IMG/VR virus record: IMGVR_UViG_3300047444_000783
Coordinates: 45,587-109,586 of that record
From: a virus
Reading direction: 5' to 3' (one strand)
DNA length: 64,000 bases
In this document: in pieces, positions 52,450 to 57,210 of the stretch
Numbering within the stretch: position 1 is the stretch's first letter
Layout: every line of letters starts with the position of its first letter
Program-made: the position numbers and the translations under genes
Notes under the pieces: model-generated
The model's input: the letters and a program-made list of their open reading frames with translations, nothing else
The model's database searches: none
Told to the model about the DNA's origin: nothing

Positions 52450-54027
52450 TTGAAGGGCCGACCACTCACCGACGGATTGAAAGAGAAGATCGGACAACTG
52501 CGGCGCAACGGACTCACGACGCGTGAAATCAGCGCTAAGGTTGCCATTTCTTTCGGCGCGATCGCCAAGTACTTACGTAAAGCCGGAATTGATCCTCCAG
52601 ACCCCTCGCCCATTTCCTCCACCATCACCGAGATTTTCGACGCGGAATTTGGCGATGACGAGACGTTAGTCGTCACCTGGGCGCAGAATGCGACTCCACC
52701 ACACCATGGCTTCCTACGGGCGCTCCGGGCTTACTGTAAGCACAATCGTGCACGCCTCGTCATTATCCCCGGACGCTATAAGAATCCGACCAGCACCTGG
52801 ACCGCCAGTCAGCAGAATGAGCAATGGTGGAGCGCTGAATTGGTACCCTACCTGTATAACCGGCGCGTGAAGCTGGGTCCGAATATCGCGCTACTCGCCG
52901 ACATCTGCGTGCAGCCTACGGCCGTTAGCCCACTCTCCGGGATGGAAACCCTGTCTCACGGCGAAAGCAGTGTCATCGGGCATCCGAAACTCCAGTTAAA
53001 GACGGTCCCAACTCCCCATCAACGCTCGCCCAAGATCATCACGACGACCGGGTCGGTCACGCGCGCGAACTACACGGACACGAAGGCCGGCAAGAAAGGG
53101 GACTTTAACCACGTCTACGGGGCGGTCGTGCTCGAGCGGTCGGGAAAGAAGTTCTATCTCCGGCACATCAACGCGCGCTCCGACGGCGCTTTCTGCGACC
53201 TCGACAAAGCGTACTTTGCGGACGGGAAAGTTAGAAACGCCGGGCCATACGCCGGCCTGGTCTTCGGGGACGTCCACGTCGATGCGTGCGATCCGGTCGT
53301 GCTCGACGCGACGTTCAACAAACTCGTCAAGCGGCTAAACCCGAAAGTACTCGTGCTGCACGATCTACTGGACGCCTATTCGGTTAATCCCCACCATGCC
53401 GGTAACCCGTTCATCGCGGTCTCGAAACGCCAGAACGATCTCGATAATCTCCAGGACGAGGTCAATCGGGTCATCGGCTGGCTCCAGCAATACACAGGCA
53501 TCCGGGAGACCGTGATCGTTCCATCGAACCACGACGATATGTTCTCCCGATGGATGTCCCGGCAGGACTGGCGAGACGATCCGACGAACGCCGAGTACTA
53601 TCTCGAGACCGCGCTATTTATGGTCCGCGGGATTAAGCATGGAATCAATGGGACGTCGACGCCAGACCCCCTCCAGTACTGGATTGGGCGCGCAAAGCTG
53701 CCGAACGTCCGATGTCTGAAAGCGCTGGAAAGTTTCATCATCAAGGGGATTGAATGCGGACTCCACGGCCATCAGGGACCGAACGGCGCCCGCGGCAGCC
53801 TGCTCAACCTGAGCCGCCTGGGCGTGAAGGTCATCACTGGGCATTCGCATACGCCAGGCATCGAGGCCGGGCACTACAAGACCGGAACGATGACGCCACT
53901 GAGTCTCGAATATACGGGGCCGGTTAGTGGCTGGCTCAATGCACATGTGGCGATCACACCGATGGGCAAACGGGTAATTTTTGTCTGCGTTGACGGGCAT
54001 TTCTGGAAGGATAGAAAAGTTGCTTAA
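52450..54027 (+). CDS. T5 A1-like metallophosphoesterase with N-terminal HTH
   Basis: GDVH, LHDLLD, SNHD, HGH, GHSH motifs; TTGSVT..NY...KAG. Confidence 0.75.
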   Translation: MKGRPLTDGLKEKIGQLRRNGLTTREISAKVAISFGAIAKYLRKAGIDPPDPSPISSTITEIFDAEFGDDETLVVTWAQNATPPHHGFLRALRAYCKHNRARLVIIPGRYKNPTSTWTASQQNEQWWSAELVPYLYNRRVKLGPNIALLADICVQPTAVSPLSGMETLSHGESSVIGHPKLQLKTVPTPHQRSPKIITTTGSVTRANYTDTKAGKKGDFNHVYGAVVLERSGKKFYLRHINARSDGAFCDLDKAYFADGKVRNAGPYAGLVFGDVHVDACDPVVLDATFNKLVKRLNPKVLVLHDLLDAYSVNPHHAGNPFIAVSKRQNDLDNLQDEVNRVIGWLQQYTGIRETVIVPSNHDDMFSRWMSRQDWRDDPTNAEYYLETALFMVRGIKHGINGTSTPDPLQYWIGRAKLPNVRCLKALESFIIKGIECGLHGHQGPNGARGSLLNLSRLGVKVITGHSHTPGIEAGHYKTGTMTPLSLEYTGPVSGWLNAHVAITPMGKRVIFVCVDGHFWKDRKVA

Positions 54028-54296
54028 CCAGTAATTCTCGTGGCTTTGGCCAGTCTCGAGATGCGGGTTACTGTTGGCCCGGCATTTGTTATGACCGGCC
54101 TATTCGATCTACTCGACGATCCTTCGCCATACCCTTTTCTTGGGAGCATGTTTGACGAGCAAGCGTATGATGCCTTATTCCCCGCCGGGATGTGGATCCC
54201 GCGGTTACCATCGGCAGATAGTAACGGACGTTCACTATCTACGGGTAGTTCACGGAACATGAACAACTGTGAATTGTGAACACTGGCTGTGAATTT

Positions 54297-54482
54297 ATGA
54301 AATGTATCTGCTGCGATAAAACATTTGGCGACTACGCGCTCAAAACAGGATGCCTTATCCCGATCACGAGCAAACTCAACCTATTCCCGGGTATCGTCTA
54401 CTGCTGCCTCAAGTGCAACCGCGAGATCCTCGAGGACTGGGTCTACAAGAAGCGGGAGATCGCCGACCTGAAGGTCTCGTAA
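54297..54482 (+). CDS. Small Cys-rich protein
   Basis: CICC...CLKC; stop abuts the end of the tRNA array. Confidence 0.5.
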   Translation: MKCICCDKTFGDYALKTGCLIPITSKLNLFPGIVYCCLKCNREILEDWVYKKREIADLKVS

Positions 54483-54553
54483 CTGCCCCGGCAGGAATCG
54501 GACCTGCGCTTCCGGATTCAAAGTCCGGCGCCTCACCATTCGGCCACAGGGCA
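54483..54553 (-). tRNA. tRNA-Gln(TTG)
   Basis: Cloverleaf; CCGGA-CTTTGAA-TCCGG. Confidence 0.9.
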
Positions 54554-54557
54554 AAAG

Positions 54558-54642
54558 CGGAAGAGCGGGGGATCGAACCCCGATGACGCTCACGCGCCGC
54601 CGCATTAGCAGTGCGGACCCTTACCATTCGGGCCACTCTTCC
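54558..54642 (-). tRNA. tRNA-Ser(GCT)
   Basis: Cloverleaf with long variable arm. Confidence 0.92.
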
Positions 54643-54645
54643 AAG

Positions 54646-54717
54646 AGTCCACGGCCGGAATCGGACCGGCGATAATGGTTTTGCAGACCATCCCCTTAGC
54701 CATTTGGGTACGTGGAC
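54646..54717 (-). tRNA. tRNA-Cys(GCA)
   Basis: Cloverleaf; U73. Confidence 0.9.
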
Positions 54718-54720
54718 AAG

Positions 54721-54799
54721 TAGCCCCTGAGAGATTTGAACTCTCACCCTTTCGGATCCGGGTCTAAGCCGGACGTGTATGCCATTTCACCAAGGGGCC
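54721..54799 (-). tRNA. tRNA-Leu(TAG)
   Basis: Cloverleaf with variable arm. Confidence 0.9.
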
Positions 54800-54803
54800 A
54801 AAG

Positions 54804-54883
54804 TGCCGGCCACGAGAGTTGAACTCGTACCCTTTCGGATCCGCTCTTAAGGCGGATGCGTCTGCCTGTTCCGCCAGGCCGGC
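54804..54883 (-). tRNA. tRNA-Leu(TAA)
   Basis: Cloverleaf with variable arm. Confidence 0.9.
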
Positions 54884-54887
54884 AAAG

Positions 54888-54978
54888 AGGAAGCGGTGAG
54901 ATTCGAACTCACGAGATAGCCTTTCAACTACCCGCCGGGTTTCGGGTCCGGTGTCTTAAACCACTCGACCACGCTTCC
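54888..54978 (-). tRNA. tRNA-Ser(CGA)
   Basis: Cloverleaf, long variable arm, C33. Confidence 0.85.
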
Positions 54979-54981
54979 AAG

Positions 54982-55066
54982 TGCGAACGGAAGGATTTGA
55001 ACCTTCGTAGCCCCAAGGGGCAACAGTTTTACAGACTGCCGTCGTTGGCCGCTTGACTACGTTCGC
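54982..55066 (-). tRNA. tRNA-Tyr(GTA)
   Basis: Cloverleaf with variable arm. Confidence 0.92.
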
Positions 55067-55069
55067 AAA

Positions 55070-55153
55070 TCCCGAACAACAGACTTGAACTGTTACGCCT
55101 TGAAGGGGCACCGGGTTTTGAGTCCGGCGTGTCTACCGTTCCACCAGTTCGGG
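55070..55153 (-). tRNA. tRNA-Leu(CAA)
   Basis: Cloverleaf with variable arm. Confidence 0.9.
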
Positions 55154-55164
55154 TGATTTTTGAT

Positions 55165-55260
55165 TTACAGGGATTGACAATAACTGAGGCGTAATGAGGG
55201 TCGCAAGCGGAGTGAGCGCAGGAAACGGTCGATCATGTGGCGAACTGTAATCTTTCGCAT
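55165..55260 (-). CDS. Putative leader peptide of tRNA operon C (31 aa)
   Basis: MRKITVRHMIDRFLRSLRLRPSLRLSYCQSL; ATG 7 nt after the -10 box; Leu/Ser/Tyr/Cys/Gln codons match downstream tRNAs. Confidence 0.7.
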   Translation of the reverse strand: MRKITVRHMIDRFLRSLRLRPSLRLSYCQSL

Positions 55261-55267
55261 GGGGGCC

Positions 55268-55296
55268 ACTTTAAATCCTTTTGTCCAGGATGTCAA
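55268..55296 (-). promoter_or_regulatory. Sigma70-like promoter of tRNA operon C
   Basis: TTGACA-17 bp-TAAAGT. Confidence 0.75.
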
Positions 55297-55368
55297 GCGC
55301 CTGCGGAGAATCGAACTCCGGATCGTCGTCTTAGGAGGACGCTGCTCTGTCCGCTGAGCTACAGGCGC
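55296..55368 (-). tRNA. tRNA-Arg(CCT)
   Basis: Cloverleaf. Confidence 0.88.
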
Positions 55369-55370
55369 GA

Positions 55371-55441
55371 TACCGAGGCTGGGAATCGGACCCAAATATC
55401 TGGATACACAGGCCAGCATTCTGCCATTGAATTACCTCGGC
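55371..55441 (-). tRNA. tRNA-His(GTG)
   Basis: Cloverleaf; no encoded G-1 or C73. Confidence 0.8.
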
Positions 55442-55444
55442 GCA

Positions 55445-55518
55445 TGCCAGCGGTGGGGTATGATCCCACAGCCCTCCGCTTAAAAGGCGGTTACTCTGTC
55501 CGTTTGAGTTACGCTGGC
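55445..55518 (-). tRNA. tRNA-Lys(TTT)
   Basis: Cloverleaf; A54/T58 T-loop. Confidence 0.85.
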
Positions 55519-55520
55519 GA

Positions 55521-55592
55521 TGCCACGGGTGGGGATTGGACCCACGACGCCCGGCTTTTCAGACCGGCGCTCTACCACTGAGCTACCGCGGC
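55521..55592 (-). tRNA. tRNA-Phe(GAA)
   Basis: Cloverleaf. Confidence 0.9.
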
Positions 55593-55625
55593 AAGCAGAT
55601 CGCGCGGTCATAGACCGCGTCTACA

Positions 55626-55698
55626 TGCTCGAGGGGAGAATCGGACTCCCGACACCCGGCTTATCAGACCGGAACTCTGACCACTGAGTTACTCGAGC
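55626..55698 (-). tRNA. tRNA-Ile(GAT)
   Basis: Cloverleaf. Confidence 0.9.
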
Positions 55699-55700
55699 GA

Positions 55701-55772
55701 CAGGGTGTAGCGGATTCGAACCGCTGATCTTCCGTTAGAGAGACGGAGGACTTGCCGCTAGTCGAACACCCC
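55701..55772 (-). tRNA. tRNA-Glu(CTC)
   Basis: TCCGT-CTCTCTA-ACGGA; T37. Confidence 0.82.
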
Positions 55773-55775
55773 AAG

Positions 55776-55846
55776 TAGCGCCGCGGAGAATCGGACTCCG
55801 ATCATCGGGTTGAAAGCCCGATTGCTTACCCTTGGCATACGGCGCC
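55776..55846 (-). tRNA. tRNA-Glu(TTC)
   Basis: Cloverleaf. Confidence 0.88.
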
Positions 55847-55864
55847 AAAATTATTCCAAAATTA

Positions 55865-55984
55865 TTCCCACGGTGAAGGTTAGCATCGCTCCTAATCCCT
55901 CATCCCCCCGTCAGCGATGATCGGGGTGCCCTTAACGGAGGCGCCTTGTCAGGCTGACACTTGACTCGTGTCTTGCCGTGGGAA
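55865..55984. ncRNA. Candidate 120-nt structured RNA inside the tRNA array
   Basis: 9-bp closing stem TTCCCACGG/CCGTGGGAA plus three internal hairpins. Confidence 0.5.
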
Positions 55985-55991
55985 CTTCAAG

Positions 55992-56065
55992 CGGAGATGA
56001 CCGGATTCGAACCGGCGATATCCTCATCGACAGTGAGGTGCCTTGAGCCGCTAGGCGACATCTCC
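55992..56065 (-). tRNA. tRNA-Asp(GTC)
   Basis: Cloverleaf. Confidence 0.92.
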
Positions 56066-56068
56066 AAG

Positions 56069-56140
56069 TGCGGTAGACGGGAATCGGACCCGCAATCTCT
56101 TCGTTGGCAACGAAGCGCCTTGCCGTTGGGCCACTACCGC
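56069..56140 (-). tRNA. tRNA-Gly(GCC)
   Basis: Cloverleaf. Confidence 0.9.
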
Positions 56141-56168
56141 AAACATGTCTAATCGTACATACTTCAAA

Positions 56169-56239
56169 TGCCTCGAGCGGGAATCGGACCCGCAGTCTCT
56201 GGTTGGAAGCCAGACGGTTTACCACTAACCGACCGAGGC
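56169..56239 (-). tRNA. tRNA-Gly(TCC)
   Basis: Cloverleaf. Confidence 0.9.
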
Positions 56240-56243
56240 GAAG

Positions 56244-56315
56244 TACCCGCGAGGCGACTCGAACGCCTATCATCCTGATTCGTAGTCAGGTGCCTATCCG
56301 TTAGACTACGCGGGC
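56244..56315 (-). tRNA. tRNA-Arg(ACG)
   Basis: Cloverleaf. Confidence 0.9.
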
Positions 56316-56319
56316 AAAG

Positions 56320-56395
56320 CTGGCAGGGTGGGTTTCGAACCCACATCTATTCCGGTTAACAGCCGGACGCATTACCGAATGTTTGCTACCTGCCA
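56320..56395 (-). tRNA. tRNA-Asn(GTT)
   Basis: Cloverleaf. Confidence 0.88.
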
Positions 56396-56396
56396 A

Positions 56397-56470
56397 TCGA
56401 TCCGGTGGGAGTCGGACCCACAACATTCCGCTTTCGGAGAGCGGTGCCCTGTCCATTAGGCGACGGATCG
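56397..56470 (-). tRNA. tRNA-Arg(CCG)
   Basis: Cloverleaf. Confidence 0.88.
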
Positions 56471-56473
56471 CAA

Positions 56474-56546
56474 CTGGGTCATCAGGCTTCGAACCTGAAA
56501 CATCCGCTTTCAGAGAGCGGCGCTCTGCCAGTTGAGCTATGACCCA
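56474..56546 (-). tRNA. tRNA-Gln(CTG)
   Basis: Cloverleaf; T1-A72. Confidence 0.9.
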
Positions 56547-56547
56547 A

Positions 56548-56620
56548 TGCTGTCCCGGGGCAACGATCCCCGAACCTACCGGGTAAGAGCCGGTTGCTCT
56601 GCCAGTTGAGCTAGGACAGC
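56548..56620 (-). tRNA. tRNA-Lys(CTT)
   Basis: Cloverleaf; A54/T58 T-loop. Confidence 0.85.
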
Positions 56621-56836
56621 TTATTCAATATATCCAGCAAGTTCGGCCGTGCAGAACGGACGGTCCGTTCTCTCCAGTTGATACCGGTCGAAAACATCTA
56701 ACAATTTCCGAAAGGCAGTACCATTTTCCCTGTCTTCCAATGAGGCAGTAACGAAAATCATAACCGCCGATTCTACACTCTTCCTGAGTAACCGCCGGTG
56801 GCGGCGCCTTTCCGCTCGCGGCTTCTTCTTTCTCAT
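56621..56836 (-). CDS. Small basic protein inserted in the tRNA array (71 aa)
   Basis: MRKKKPRAERRRHRRLL...; fills the gap between tRNA-Val and tRNA-Lys. Confidence 0.55.
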   Translation of the reverse strand: MRKKKPRAERRRHRRLLRKSVESAVMIFVTASLEDRENGTAFRKLLDVFDRYQLERTDRPFCTAELAGYIE

Positions 56837-56837
56837 A

Positions 56838-56910
56838 TAGCCCCTGGAGGCAACGATCCCCCAACCTCCCGGGTGTAGGCCGGGCGCTCTGCCGGTTGAG
56901 CTAAGGAGCC
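56838..56910 (-). tRNA. tRNA-Val(TAC)
   Basis: Cloverleaf; C33, A54/T58. Confidence 0.85.
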
Positions 56911-56917
56911 ATGTCAA

Positions 56918-56990
56918 AGCCAACGGCCGGCAACGATCCGGCAACATCCGGTTTACAGGACCGGCGTTCTGCCTATTGAACTACGTCGGC
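56918..56990 (-). tRNA. tRNA-Thr(TGT)
   Basis: Cloverleaf; C33, A54/T58. Confidence 0.85.
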
Positions 56991-56993
56991 GAA

Positions 56994-57058
56994 GGTCCAG
57001 CCAGTCTCCAGTAACTACCGTCCTAGGACGGCGCTCTACCAGTACATGGGGCCAGACC
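56994..57058 (-). other. Degenerate tRNA-like element
   Basis: 9-bp terminal stem, TGGTAGAGCG D-arm remnant, CCGTC-CTAG-GACGG arm, no T-loop. Confidence 0.5.
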
Positions 57059-57060
57059 AA

Positions 57061-57131
57061 AGCCACAGCCGGGAATTGAACCCGAGTATCTCGCTTACCA
57101 AGCGAGTGCCTTACCACTCGGCCACTGCGGC
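57061..57131 (-). tRNA. tRNA-Thr(GGT)
   Basis: Cloverleaf. Confidence 0.92.
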
Positions 57132-57134
57132 GAA

Positions 57135-57207
57135 AGCCAGCGGGGAGAATCGGACTCCCGACCTGTGCGTTACGAGTGCACTGCTCTACCAATTGAGCTA
57201 CGCCGGC
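57135..57207 (-). tRNA. tRNA-Thr(CGT)
   Basis: Cloverleaf. Confidence 0.9.
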
Positions 57208-57210
57208 AAA

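Follow-up and report, generated by a model that had tools for sequence, protein, structure and literature searches.

The window analysed here, meaning the whole 64-kb stretch of DNA, is the final part of the 109,586-base IMG/VR virus record IMGVR_UViG_3300047444_000783, which derives from an uncultured phage. The first 100 bases of the record occur again at position 109,343, indicating a terminal direct repeat and a complete genome. The portal, terminase, tail-fibre, amidase and T5 A1-like genes identify it as a tailed phage. No close cultured relative of the phage was found, and searches of GenBank phages by DNA and by protein returned no match.

ARAGORN predicts 32 tRNA genes within 54482-58652, every one on the minus strand, and together they cover 20 of 20 amino acids. 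The array is organized as three predicted transcription units (blocks A to C), each with a leader, and leader C heads the final eight tRNAs, which are separated by only 2-3 nt. Each amino acid is served from a single block, the exceptions being Arg, found in all blocks, and Gln, an exception in the window only. The junction between blocks B and C, here called gap C, comprises the following features.

55296-55368, minus strand: tRNA-Arg(CCU), last gene of upstream block B, with its 3' end abutting the -35 hexamer (ARAGORN)
55291-55296, minus strand: -35 hexamer of promoter C, TTGACA (consensus scan)
55268-55273, minus strand: -10 hexamer of promoter C, TAAAGT, after a 17-nt spacer (consensus scan)
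55165-55260, minus strand: leader ORF C, 31 codons plus TAA (stop at 55167-55165), with homologous ORFs at L069:6944-7042 and P0123 residues 27-58
55222-55260, minus strand: proximal part of leader C, codons 1-13, block-B amino acids only, with Arg as CGN
55168-55221, minus strand: distal part of leader C, codons 14-31, consisting of 13 Leu/Ser/Tyr/Cys/Gln codons, four Arg and one Pro
55151-55228, minus strand: C-rich, G-poor stretch of 78 nt (29 C, 10 G), a candidate Rho entry (rut-like) site
55154-55164, minus strand: A-rich spacer of 11 nt from the stop codon to the first tRNA, lacking a hairpin or U-tract
55070-55153, minus strand: tRNA-Leu(CAA), first gene of block C (ARAGORN)
54482-55153, minus strand: block C, with Leu(CAA), Tyr(GTA), Ser(CGA), Leu(TAA), Leu(TAG), Cys(GCA), Ser(GCT) and Gln(TTG) (ARAGORN)

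The minus strand of the entire 110-kb genome has only four perfect sites of the form TTGACA-N16-18-TAnnnT/nATAAT, three of which lie in or near the tRNA array (59017, 57537 and 55296). The gap C promoter is probably an internal, sigma-70-type promoter. Seven nucleotides, GGCCCCC, separate the -10 box from the ATG at 55260, which lies in a C-A context that would suit initiation at the A of the ATG. With the ATG 7 nt past the -10 hexamer in the window and 8 nt past it in the relative described below, the leader C mRNA is probably leaderless or nearly so.

A scan of positions 55296-55070 found no intrinsic terminator (hairpin plus U-tract) in gap C, and the end of block B likewise carries none. 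These results bear out the anatomy proposed in an earlier, sequence-only reading of the locus. The coordinates place the ATG 7 nt after the TAAAGT box, as that reading stated, and the same layout recurs in the relative. The TAA at 55167-55165 and the tRNA start at 55153 give the stop-to-tRNA distance of 11 nt that it reported. The hairpin with a U-tract that it had failed to see is also missing from the corresponding region of the relative, and its description of a C-rich coding stretch matches the 31 C and 17 G of the leader ORF. Rfam covariance models, searched to an E value of up to 10, gave only one meaningful match in the gap, to the flanking tRNA-Arg, along with two at chance level; a decayed tRNA or a known RNA family was therefore rejected. 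A boxA-like antitermination site, sought by eye, matched at 5 of 12 positions and was discarded, as was an antisense promoter, for which the opposite-strand TTGACA is not kept in the relative.

A search with the portal gene identified IMGVR_UViG_3300046543_000595 (G006), a record of 107,420 bases with terminal repeats and a portal that is 70% identical. Its tRNA array (L069) is syntenic, running ...Lys(UUU), His, Arg(CCU), a 152-nt gap, then Leu(CAA), Tyr, Ser(CGA), Leu(UAG), Cys and Ser(GCU). The gap contains TTGACA, 18 nt, TAGGAT, 8 nt, and the ATG of a 32-codon ORF that ends in CTG-TAA as in the window. Its stop is followed by 15 A-rich nucleotides, with no terminator, before the tRNA. Exactly three promoter-like sites occur in the G006 array, at places matching those of the window. 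A second IMG/VR contig (L070) is the G006 phage from another sample.

A profile of the two leader C peptides, run against 1.84 billion proteins, gave a single match (P0123, E = 8e-10), a 58-residue gene call on a 4.3-kb Logan contig; the final 32 residues of this call represent the peptide in a third form. Eleven codons ahead of its Met, P0123 has an in-frame Leu-Thr, the translation of TTGACA, so that a -35 box would lie 33 nt from the ATG, as judged from the translation only. This match has no name, and we found no relatives of the peptide with a named function: none among GenBank phages, and only chance-level matches in the Atlas. Used as a protein query, P0123 matched itself alone, and aligning the peptide to GTDB genomes gave nothing. 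At the DNA level, the exact promoter string had no match in IMG/VR, a pattern for the distal ORF matched nothing there besides G006 and a fragment of the same phage, and a degenerate pattern gave 22 matches in metagenome contigs, all by chance. One pattern match, 40 nt ahead of a bacterial tRNA-Ser, was rejected on account of an in-frame stop just upstream. An 18-mer of the shared tRNA-Ser(CGA) led to no further arrays, the portal alignment in IMG/VR reached only short fragments, and no relatives were found via the 210-residue ORF inside the array. The T5 A1-like protein encoded next to the array has many relatives (52-68% identity); these were set aside as array relatives because their phages are smaller (27-55 kb) and have no tRNA arrays.

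The frame of leader C is kept between the window and G006 despite considerable divergence, with 31 of 93 aligned bases differing, plus one in-frame 3-nt indel. The two halves of the ORF evolve differently. Within the proximal half (codons 2-15), only 3 of 14 residues are kept, as opposed to 13 of 16 in the distal half. The proximal part diverges fast between lineages, and its amino-acid class is retained. In the 13 distal codons whose residues are unchanged, each of the five base changes is at a third position, and third-base identity in these codons (62%) is close to that at identical-residue codons of the portal gene (58%). The restriction of these changes to third positions, in the two DNA sequences available, suggests that the distal half behaves like coding sequence under purifying selection and not like an RNA motif conserved base by base. 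Over the whole ORF, the spread of changes across codon positions is 11:9:11, without bias. Where distal residues do change, Leu, Pro and Gln of the window are all replaced by Ser in G006, and at three conserved Arg positions the synonymous codons vary.

The peptide ends in S-L-R-L-S-Y-C-x-S-L in three of three lineages, which are homologous and not independent, with DNA from two of them (the window and G006). This retention of an exact distal peptide, beyond composition alone, was not part of the sequence-only reading. Based on the comparison, leader C is a real, conserved element. An exact distal sequence is not required of a pure codon sensor, and fits a functional peptide or an arrest peptide equally well.

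The codons of the distal part correspond to the tRNAs encoded behind it. TTG, TTA, CTG, AGT, TAT, TGT and CAA are present and TCG is absent, exactly as had been listed from the sequence alone, and the accompanying claim that seven of the eight downstream tRNAs have a readable codon holds (P 0.02-0.03). The corresponding count in G006 is six of six (P 0.004-0.007). The last seven residues of leader C are all of the block-C class. Leader C is alone among the genome's 1391 six-frame ORFs in having Leu, Ser, Tyr, Cys or Gln at each of its last seven positions; two ORFs have at least 13 of their last 18 residues in this set, and two begin with 13 block-B residues. We also noted a regularity that the earlier reading did not mention: the proximal 10-13 codons specify solely block-B amino acids. 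The resulting two-part layout, block-B class followed by block-C class, is also present in G006 and P0123.

Since the classes were first noticed on the window sequence, the window's own P values are post hoc, and conservation in the relatives is the stronger evidence. We therefore held the 31 changed positions fixed and drew new bases at random in 200,000 trials. The ORF remained open, with its first ten residues in the block-B class and a block-C count at least as high as observed, in 3e-4 of the trials, compared with 0.58 for the ORF merely staying open. The location of tRNA-Gln(UUG) offers a further comparison. In the window this gene is the last of block C, whereas G006 carries it in block B. 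The window leader has CAA in its distal part; in G006 the same site encodes Ser, and CAA appears at codon 4, in the block-B-type part, as well as in leader B. This one event may be viewed as a natural experiment, and it fits a link between leader codons and tRNAs.

The match is looser at the level of decoding. Under strict wobble rules, about half of the distal Leu/Ser codons are readable by phage tRNAs; TCA, TCC, TCT and CTC are unreadable, as is TTA in G006, which keeps this codon though it has no tRNA-Leu(UAA). In the long ORFs of the phage, AGT, TAT, TGT and CAA are each the less used synonym (their frequencies multiply to about 0.005), and no Leu codons are rarer than TTA and TTG; G006 keeps AGT, TAT and TGT. 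Overall, the link between leader codons and downstream tRNAs survives the null models and the comparison of two lineages, and we consider it supported.

Short ORFs conserved in G006 also follow the other two array promoters. Leader A, ahead of tRNA-Pro, Ala, Arg(UCU) and Trp, keeps an A-A-A-R-P-W-P core, and leader B, ahead of a 20-tRNA block, ends in V-P-x-V-T-G. Each is then followed by a strong terminator just 5' of the first tRNA, with a stem sequence that differs between the phages. Compared with random segments, leaders A and B have codons for more of the tRNAs in their own blocks, reaching 18 of 20 tRNAs for leader B of G006 (P = 2e-4). Crude ribosome-masked folding of the two leaders revealed no conserved antiterminator, and attenuation is consequently unproven even for these terminator-bearing units. 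Leaders A and B are supporting context, not proven attenuators.

The leader C transcript has an unusual composition. In each phage, no other 78-nt window of the tRNA array is as rich in C and as poor in G as the one in its distal part (28 C and 10 G in G006), and a C/G ratio of at least 2.5 occurs in only 0.2% of genome windows. G-ending distal codons number 3, compared with 7 expected (P about 0.03 in each phage). Folding of the 108-nt leader gives an MFE of -11.7 kcal/mol, a value equalled or bettered by 161 of 200 shuffles. Folding z scores of +0.9 and +1.6 in the two phages indicate that the leader is less structured than most shuffles. Foldings of the window and G006 contain no conserved duplex within leader C or between it and the tRNA. 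A hidden terminator formed with tRNA-Leu was rejected, given that the two phages have different predicted leader-tRNA pairings, which score no better than those of shuffles. The composition and low structure are what a Rho entry site would show, making this stretch a candidate and lending indirect support to the Rho-dependent control suggested in the sequence-only reading. The same features also follow in part from the use of Leu, Ser and Arg(CGC) codons.

So, what might an element with the observed anatomy, conservation, codon-class split and RNA composition do? We tentatively favor, at somewhat under even confidence, a translated and probably leaderless ORF that acts in cis as a sensor with a Rho-type output. 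In the mechanism that we infer, from translation and leaderless initiation through stalling and Rho to the direction of control, the ORF would be translated first on the transcript of the last eight tRNAs and would serve as a cis-acting sensor, not as a protein gene. Ribosome dwell on the distal codons would track the supply of Leu, Ser, Tyr, Cys and Gln tRNAs, with the demand made mostly via rare or wobble-read codons. A slow ribosome would mask the Rho entry site and allow RNA polymerase to proceed into the tRNA genes, while a fast ribosome would depart at the stop, expose the site and let transcription end early. On transcripts that read through from block B, the ATG would be internal and lack a Shine-Dalgarno sequence; these RNAs would go untranslated and be terminated at gap C.

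A Rho-dependent output is the most likely one because there is no terminator hairpin and because the distal ORF is unstructured, C-rich and G-poor. Taken alone, the Rho step is perhaps correct, and we regard it as distinctly doubtful. Neither leaderless translation nor Rho can be presumed of the host, and the Rho model is limited by the prospect that an RNase P cut at the first tRNA would detach the Rho-loaded leader from the polymerase. The sequence-only reading had also put forward ribosome-gated tRNA folding. The spacing makes this unlikely as a general output, as a ribosome at the stop would end a few nucleotides short of the tRNA and reach at most one gene. A broader reading extends the sensor to the entire array as a three-part, ribosome-read feedback on tRNA supply, in which each unit is headed by an ORF sampling the codons of its own tRNAs, leaders A and B act through hairpin terminators, and leader C is a leaderless ORF that hides a Rho site. 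We consider this possible and, as a whole, doubtful. If true, slow reading of the matching codons would be needed for each block to be made, as might occur when host tRNAs are cut or depleted during infection.

Could leader C instead be an ordinary small phage gene, its tRNA match a coincidence? The 31-32-residue peptide is strongly basic and might act in trans, with RNA or the ribosome as possible binding partners. Conservation of the exact distal sequence speaks most strongly for a peptide with its own function, including a TnaC-like arrest peptide: the C-terminal sequence is kept in all three lineages, three Arg with varying synonymous codons included, and third positions change at the genomic synonymous rate. 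Other small ORFs also occupy gaps in the array. These other ORFs are unshared between the phages, however, whereas leaders A to C are common to both. The main point against a peptide with its own function is that the substitutions are chemically non-conservative and class-preserving. Leu/Ser, Pro/Ser and Gln/Ser changes, and the fast-evolving proximal half, stay within the tRNA-block class, where protein chemistry predicts otherwise. Together with the rare or wobble-read codon choice and the lack of any family or of a homologue with a named function in our searches, this leads us to view a gene acting in trans as unlikely. The idea that the frame is incidental, with gap C as a non-coding spacer that pairs an internal promoter with an unstructured C-rich stretch serving as the Rho-dependent terminator of block B or as a processing region, draws on the array's top C/G window in both phages, the low structure, the absence of an Rfam family, and the lack of an intrinsic terminator at the end of block B. 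The even codon-position spread (11:9:11) agrees with it, and survival of an ORF by chance is not rare (P(open) = 0.58). A nucleotide-level need for pyrimidine-rich RNA would likewise enrich Leu and Ser in this frame. It would not explain the conserved AGT-TAT-TGT, which is not pyrimidine-rich, nor does a spacer account for an ATG that stays 7-8 nt past the -10 box, a stop and frame kept across an in-frame indel, silent changes in the conserved half that all fall at third positions, or amino-acid classes kept far above random-base expectation (3e-4). We judge the spacer to be rather unlikely.

A translated leader might also have an output other than Rho, with nascent-peptide arrest at or near the stop protecting the 5' end of the transcript from decay or timing RNase P/RNase E processing of the first tRNA. 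The C-terminal motif is indeed kept right up to the stop, and the A-rich spacer of 11-15 nt would leave a terminating ribosome a little way ahead of the tRNA 5' end. Such an effect could act on at most one tRNA of eight, however, and no structural element joins the ORF to the tRNA in both phages, as the pairings differ and score like shuffles, so this version is quite improbable. That a chance ORF simply lies beside a real promoter was already disfavored and strikes us as very improbable. Short ORFs are common and the original pattern was found post hoc, but the ORF is kept in three lineages, has the sole such end among the 1391 ORFs, and its classes survive divergence. We return to the cis-acting sensor and compare it with known systems.

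In the attenuators of amino-acid operons (trpL, hisL, leuL, pheL, thrL and ilvL), a leader-peptide ORF contains cognate codons and ribosome speed is the sensor. Leader-peptide transcription attenuation of such operons has been modelled (PMC1183508). Leader C is similar in being a short ORF at the head of the transcript with codons cognate to what the operon supplies. It differs in preceding tRNAs, so that the sensed molecule would be the product itself, and in sampling several amino acids once or twice each with no run of a single residue. Its start is probably leaderless, and it has no terminator/antiterminator hairpin. Leader C would work much as leader-peptide attenuation does, but it lacks the pairing that defines an intrinsic-terminator attenuator.

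Rho-dependent control by leader ORFs is exemplified by tnaC-tnaA, mgtL-mgtA, and the speFL and toiL types. Such control has been reviewed (PMC12360218). As in the tnaC/mgtL type, leader C is a short ORF that ends beside an unstructured C-rich, G-poor RNA of ~ 70-80 nt (rut-like), and a ribosome held near its end would hide the candidate Rho site. A conserved C-terminal peptide motif is a further feature shared with TnaC. Unlike in these systems, the rut-like stretch is inside the ORF and not after it, the tRNA genes start 11 nt past the stop, and no ligand is implied. Another parallel is the mycobacterial Cys 'ribulon', in which leaderless polycysteine short ORFs control downstream genes by pausing at limiting codons, the stalled ribosome opening an RNA duplex that conceals the ribosome-binding site belonging to the next gene (bioRxiv 10.1101/834739). 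Leader C would share a sensory short ORF, predicted to be leaderless, as the first cistron; the genes after it are untranslated (tRNAs), and no duplex that hides a ribosome-binding site was found. Leader C may be a variant of ribosome-mediated control, with a mechanism that we offer as a proposal only.

In the full-text literature, a search whose bounds leave most subscription-journal papers outside, no phage or cellular tRNA genes turned up that are described as being under the control of a leader ORF. If the proposal is true, leader C would be the first case found of attenuation-type sensing on tRNA genes, and a direct feedback loop. It would give a simple readout of tRNA depletion in infection, which bears on how hosts defend themselves by cleaving tRNAs and on how phages take over translation, and the terminator-less unit C would represent the same logic wired to a different output. 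To our knowledge, almost nothing is known of how phages control their own tRNA genes, and why some phages carry a near-complete tRNA set is unsettled.

The tRNA clusters of T4, T5 and other phages are interrupted by internal promoters and small ORFs. We know of no such cluster, and our literature searches found none, in which an ORF has codons matching the tRNAs that follow or is kept as a conserved leader. In T4, the segB gene sits within the tRNA cluster (PMC2330249). Like the T4 and T5 clusters, the array of the window is broken by promoters and short ORFs. Apart from the leaders, its gaps hold ORFs of 71 and 210 codons, and those of G006 hold one of 51 codons.

Leaders A and B, each comprising a promoter and a short ORF at the head of a tRNA block, are both conserved in the relative G006 (IMGVR_UViG_3300046543_000595) when the window is compared with L069, the G006 locus that carries the syntenic array. 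The array features considered here are:

Window 58653-58850; L069 3830-4009: leader A, with promoter, short ORF and strong terminator just 5' of the first tRNA
Window 58329-58420; L069 4166-4255: tRNA-Trp(CCA), 90-92 nt long
L069 4256-4368 and 6103-6192: G006 gaps of 113 nt and 90 nt without a called tRNA
Window 57561-58193, minus strand: 210-aa ORF within the array, with block A on one side and promoter B on the other
Window 57284-57545; L069 4690-4972: leader B, with promoter, short ORF and strong terminator just 5' of the first tRNA
Window 56621-56836, minus strand: 216-nt gap between tRNA-Val and tRNA-Lys(CUU), with a 71-codon ORF
Window 55847-55990, minus strand: 144-nt gap between tRNA-Asp and tRNA-Glu(UUC)

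The leader A ORF retains a core of A-A-A-R-P-W-P in both phages, as the leader B ORF does V-P-x-V-T-G at its end, and the terminator stems of both leaders differ in sequence between the two.

Given that tRNA-Val and tRNA-Lys(CUU) adjoin each other in G006, the 216-nt gap and its 71-codon ORF represent an insertion into the array. The N-terminus of this ORF is very basic. The 210-aa ORF has a strong GGAGG ribosome-binding site, and neither a PHROG match nor an IMG/VR relative was found for it; its place in G006 is occupied by only a 51-codon ORF. No ORF or tRNA was called in the 144-nt gap, which is closed by a tandem AATAATTTTGG repeat and is equivalent to a spacing of 78 nt in G006. Both G006 gaps contain T-arm-like sequence (GGTTTCGAATCT in the 113-nt gap) and may hold decayed tRNA genes. 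tRNA-Asp and tRNA-Leu(UAA) are not detectable in G006, and an additional tRNA-Pro(CGG) is present. In both phages, tRNA-Trp(CCA) has a long extra arm, which is unusual for tRNA-Trp.

Beyond the array, three further features were noted:

Window 54276-54482, plus strand: Cys-rich 68-aa ORF, convergent with the array
Window 52450-54027, plus strand: T5 A1-like 'DNA transfer' protein
Genome 1-100 and 109343-109442 (window 63757-63856): direct repeat at the termini, 100 nt or longer

The Cys-rich ORF stops directly against the 3' end of tRNA-Gln(UUG), with which the array closes. Because the minus strand has no intrinsic terminator after the array, transcripts of the array would continue antisense into the Cys-rich gene. 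Relatives of the T5 A1-like protein number in the hundreds, with identities of 50-68%. Those that could be read come from much smaller phages (27-55 kb) in which tRNA arrays are absent, and the gene therefore seems to move between phage groups. IMG/VR lists record IMGVR_UViG_3300047444_000783 as 'linear'; based on the direct terminal repeat, the phage genome looks complete.
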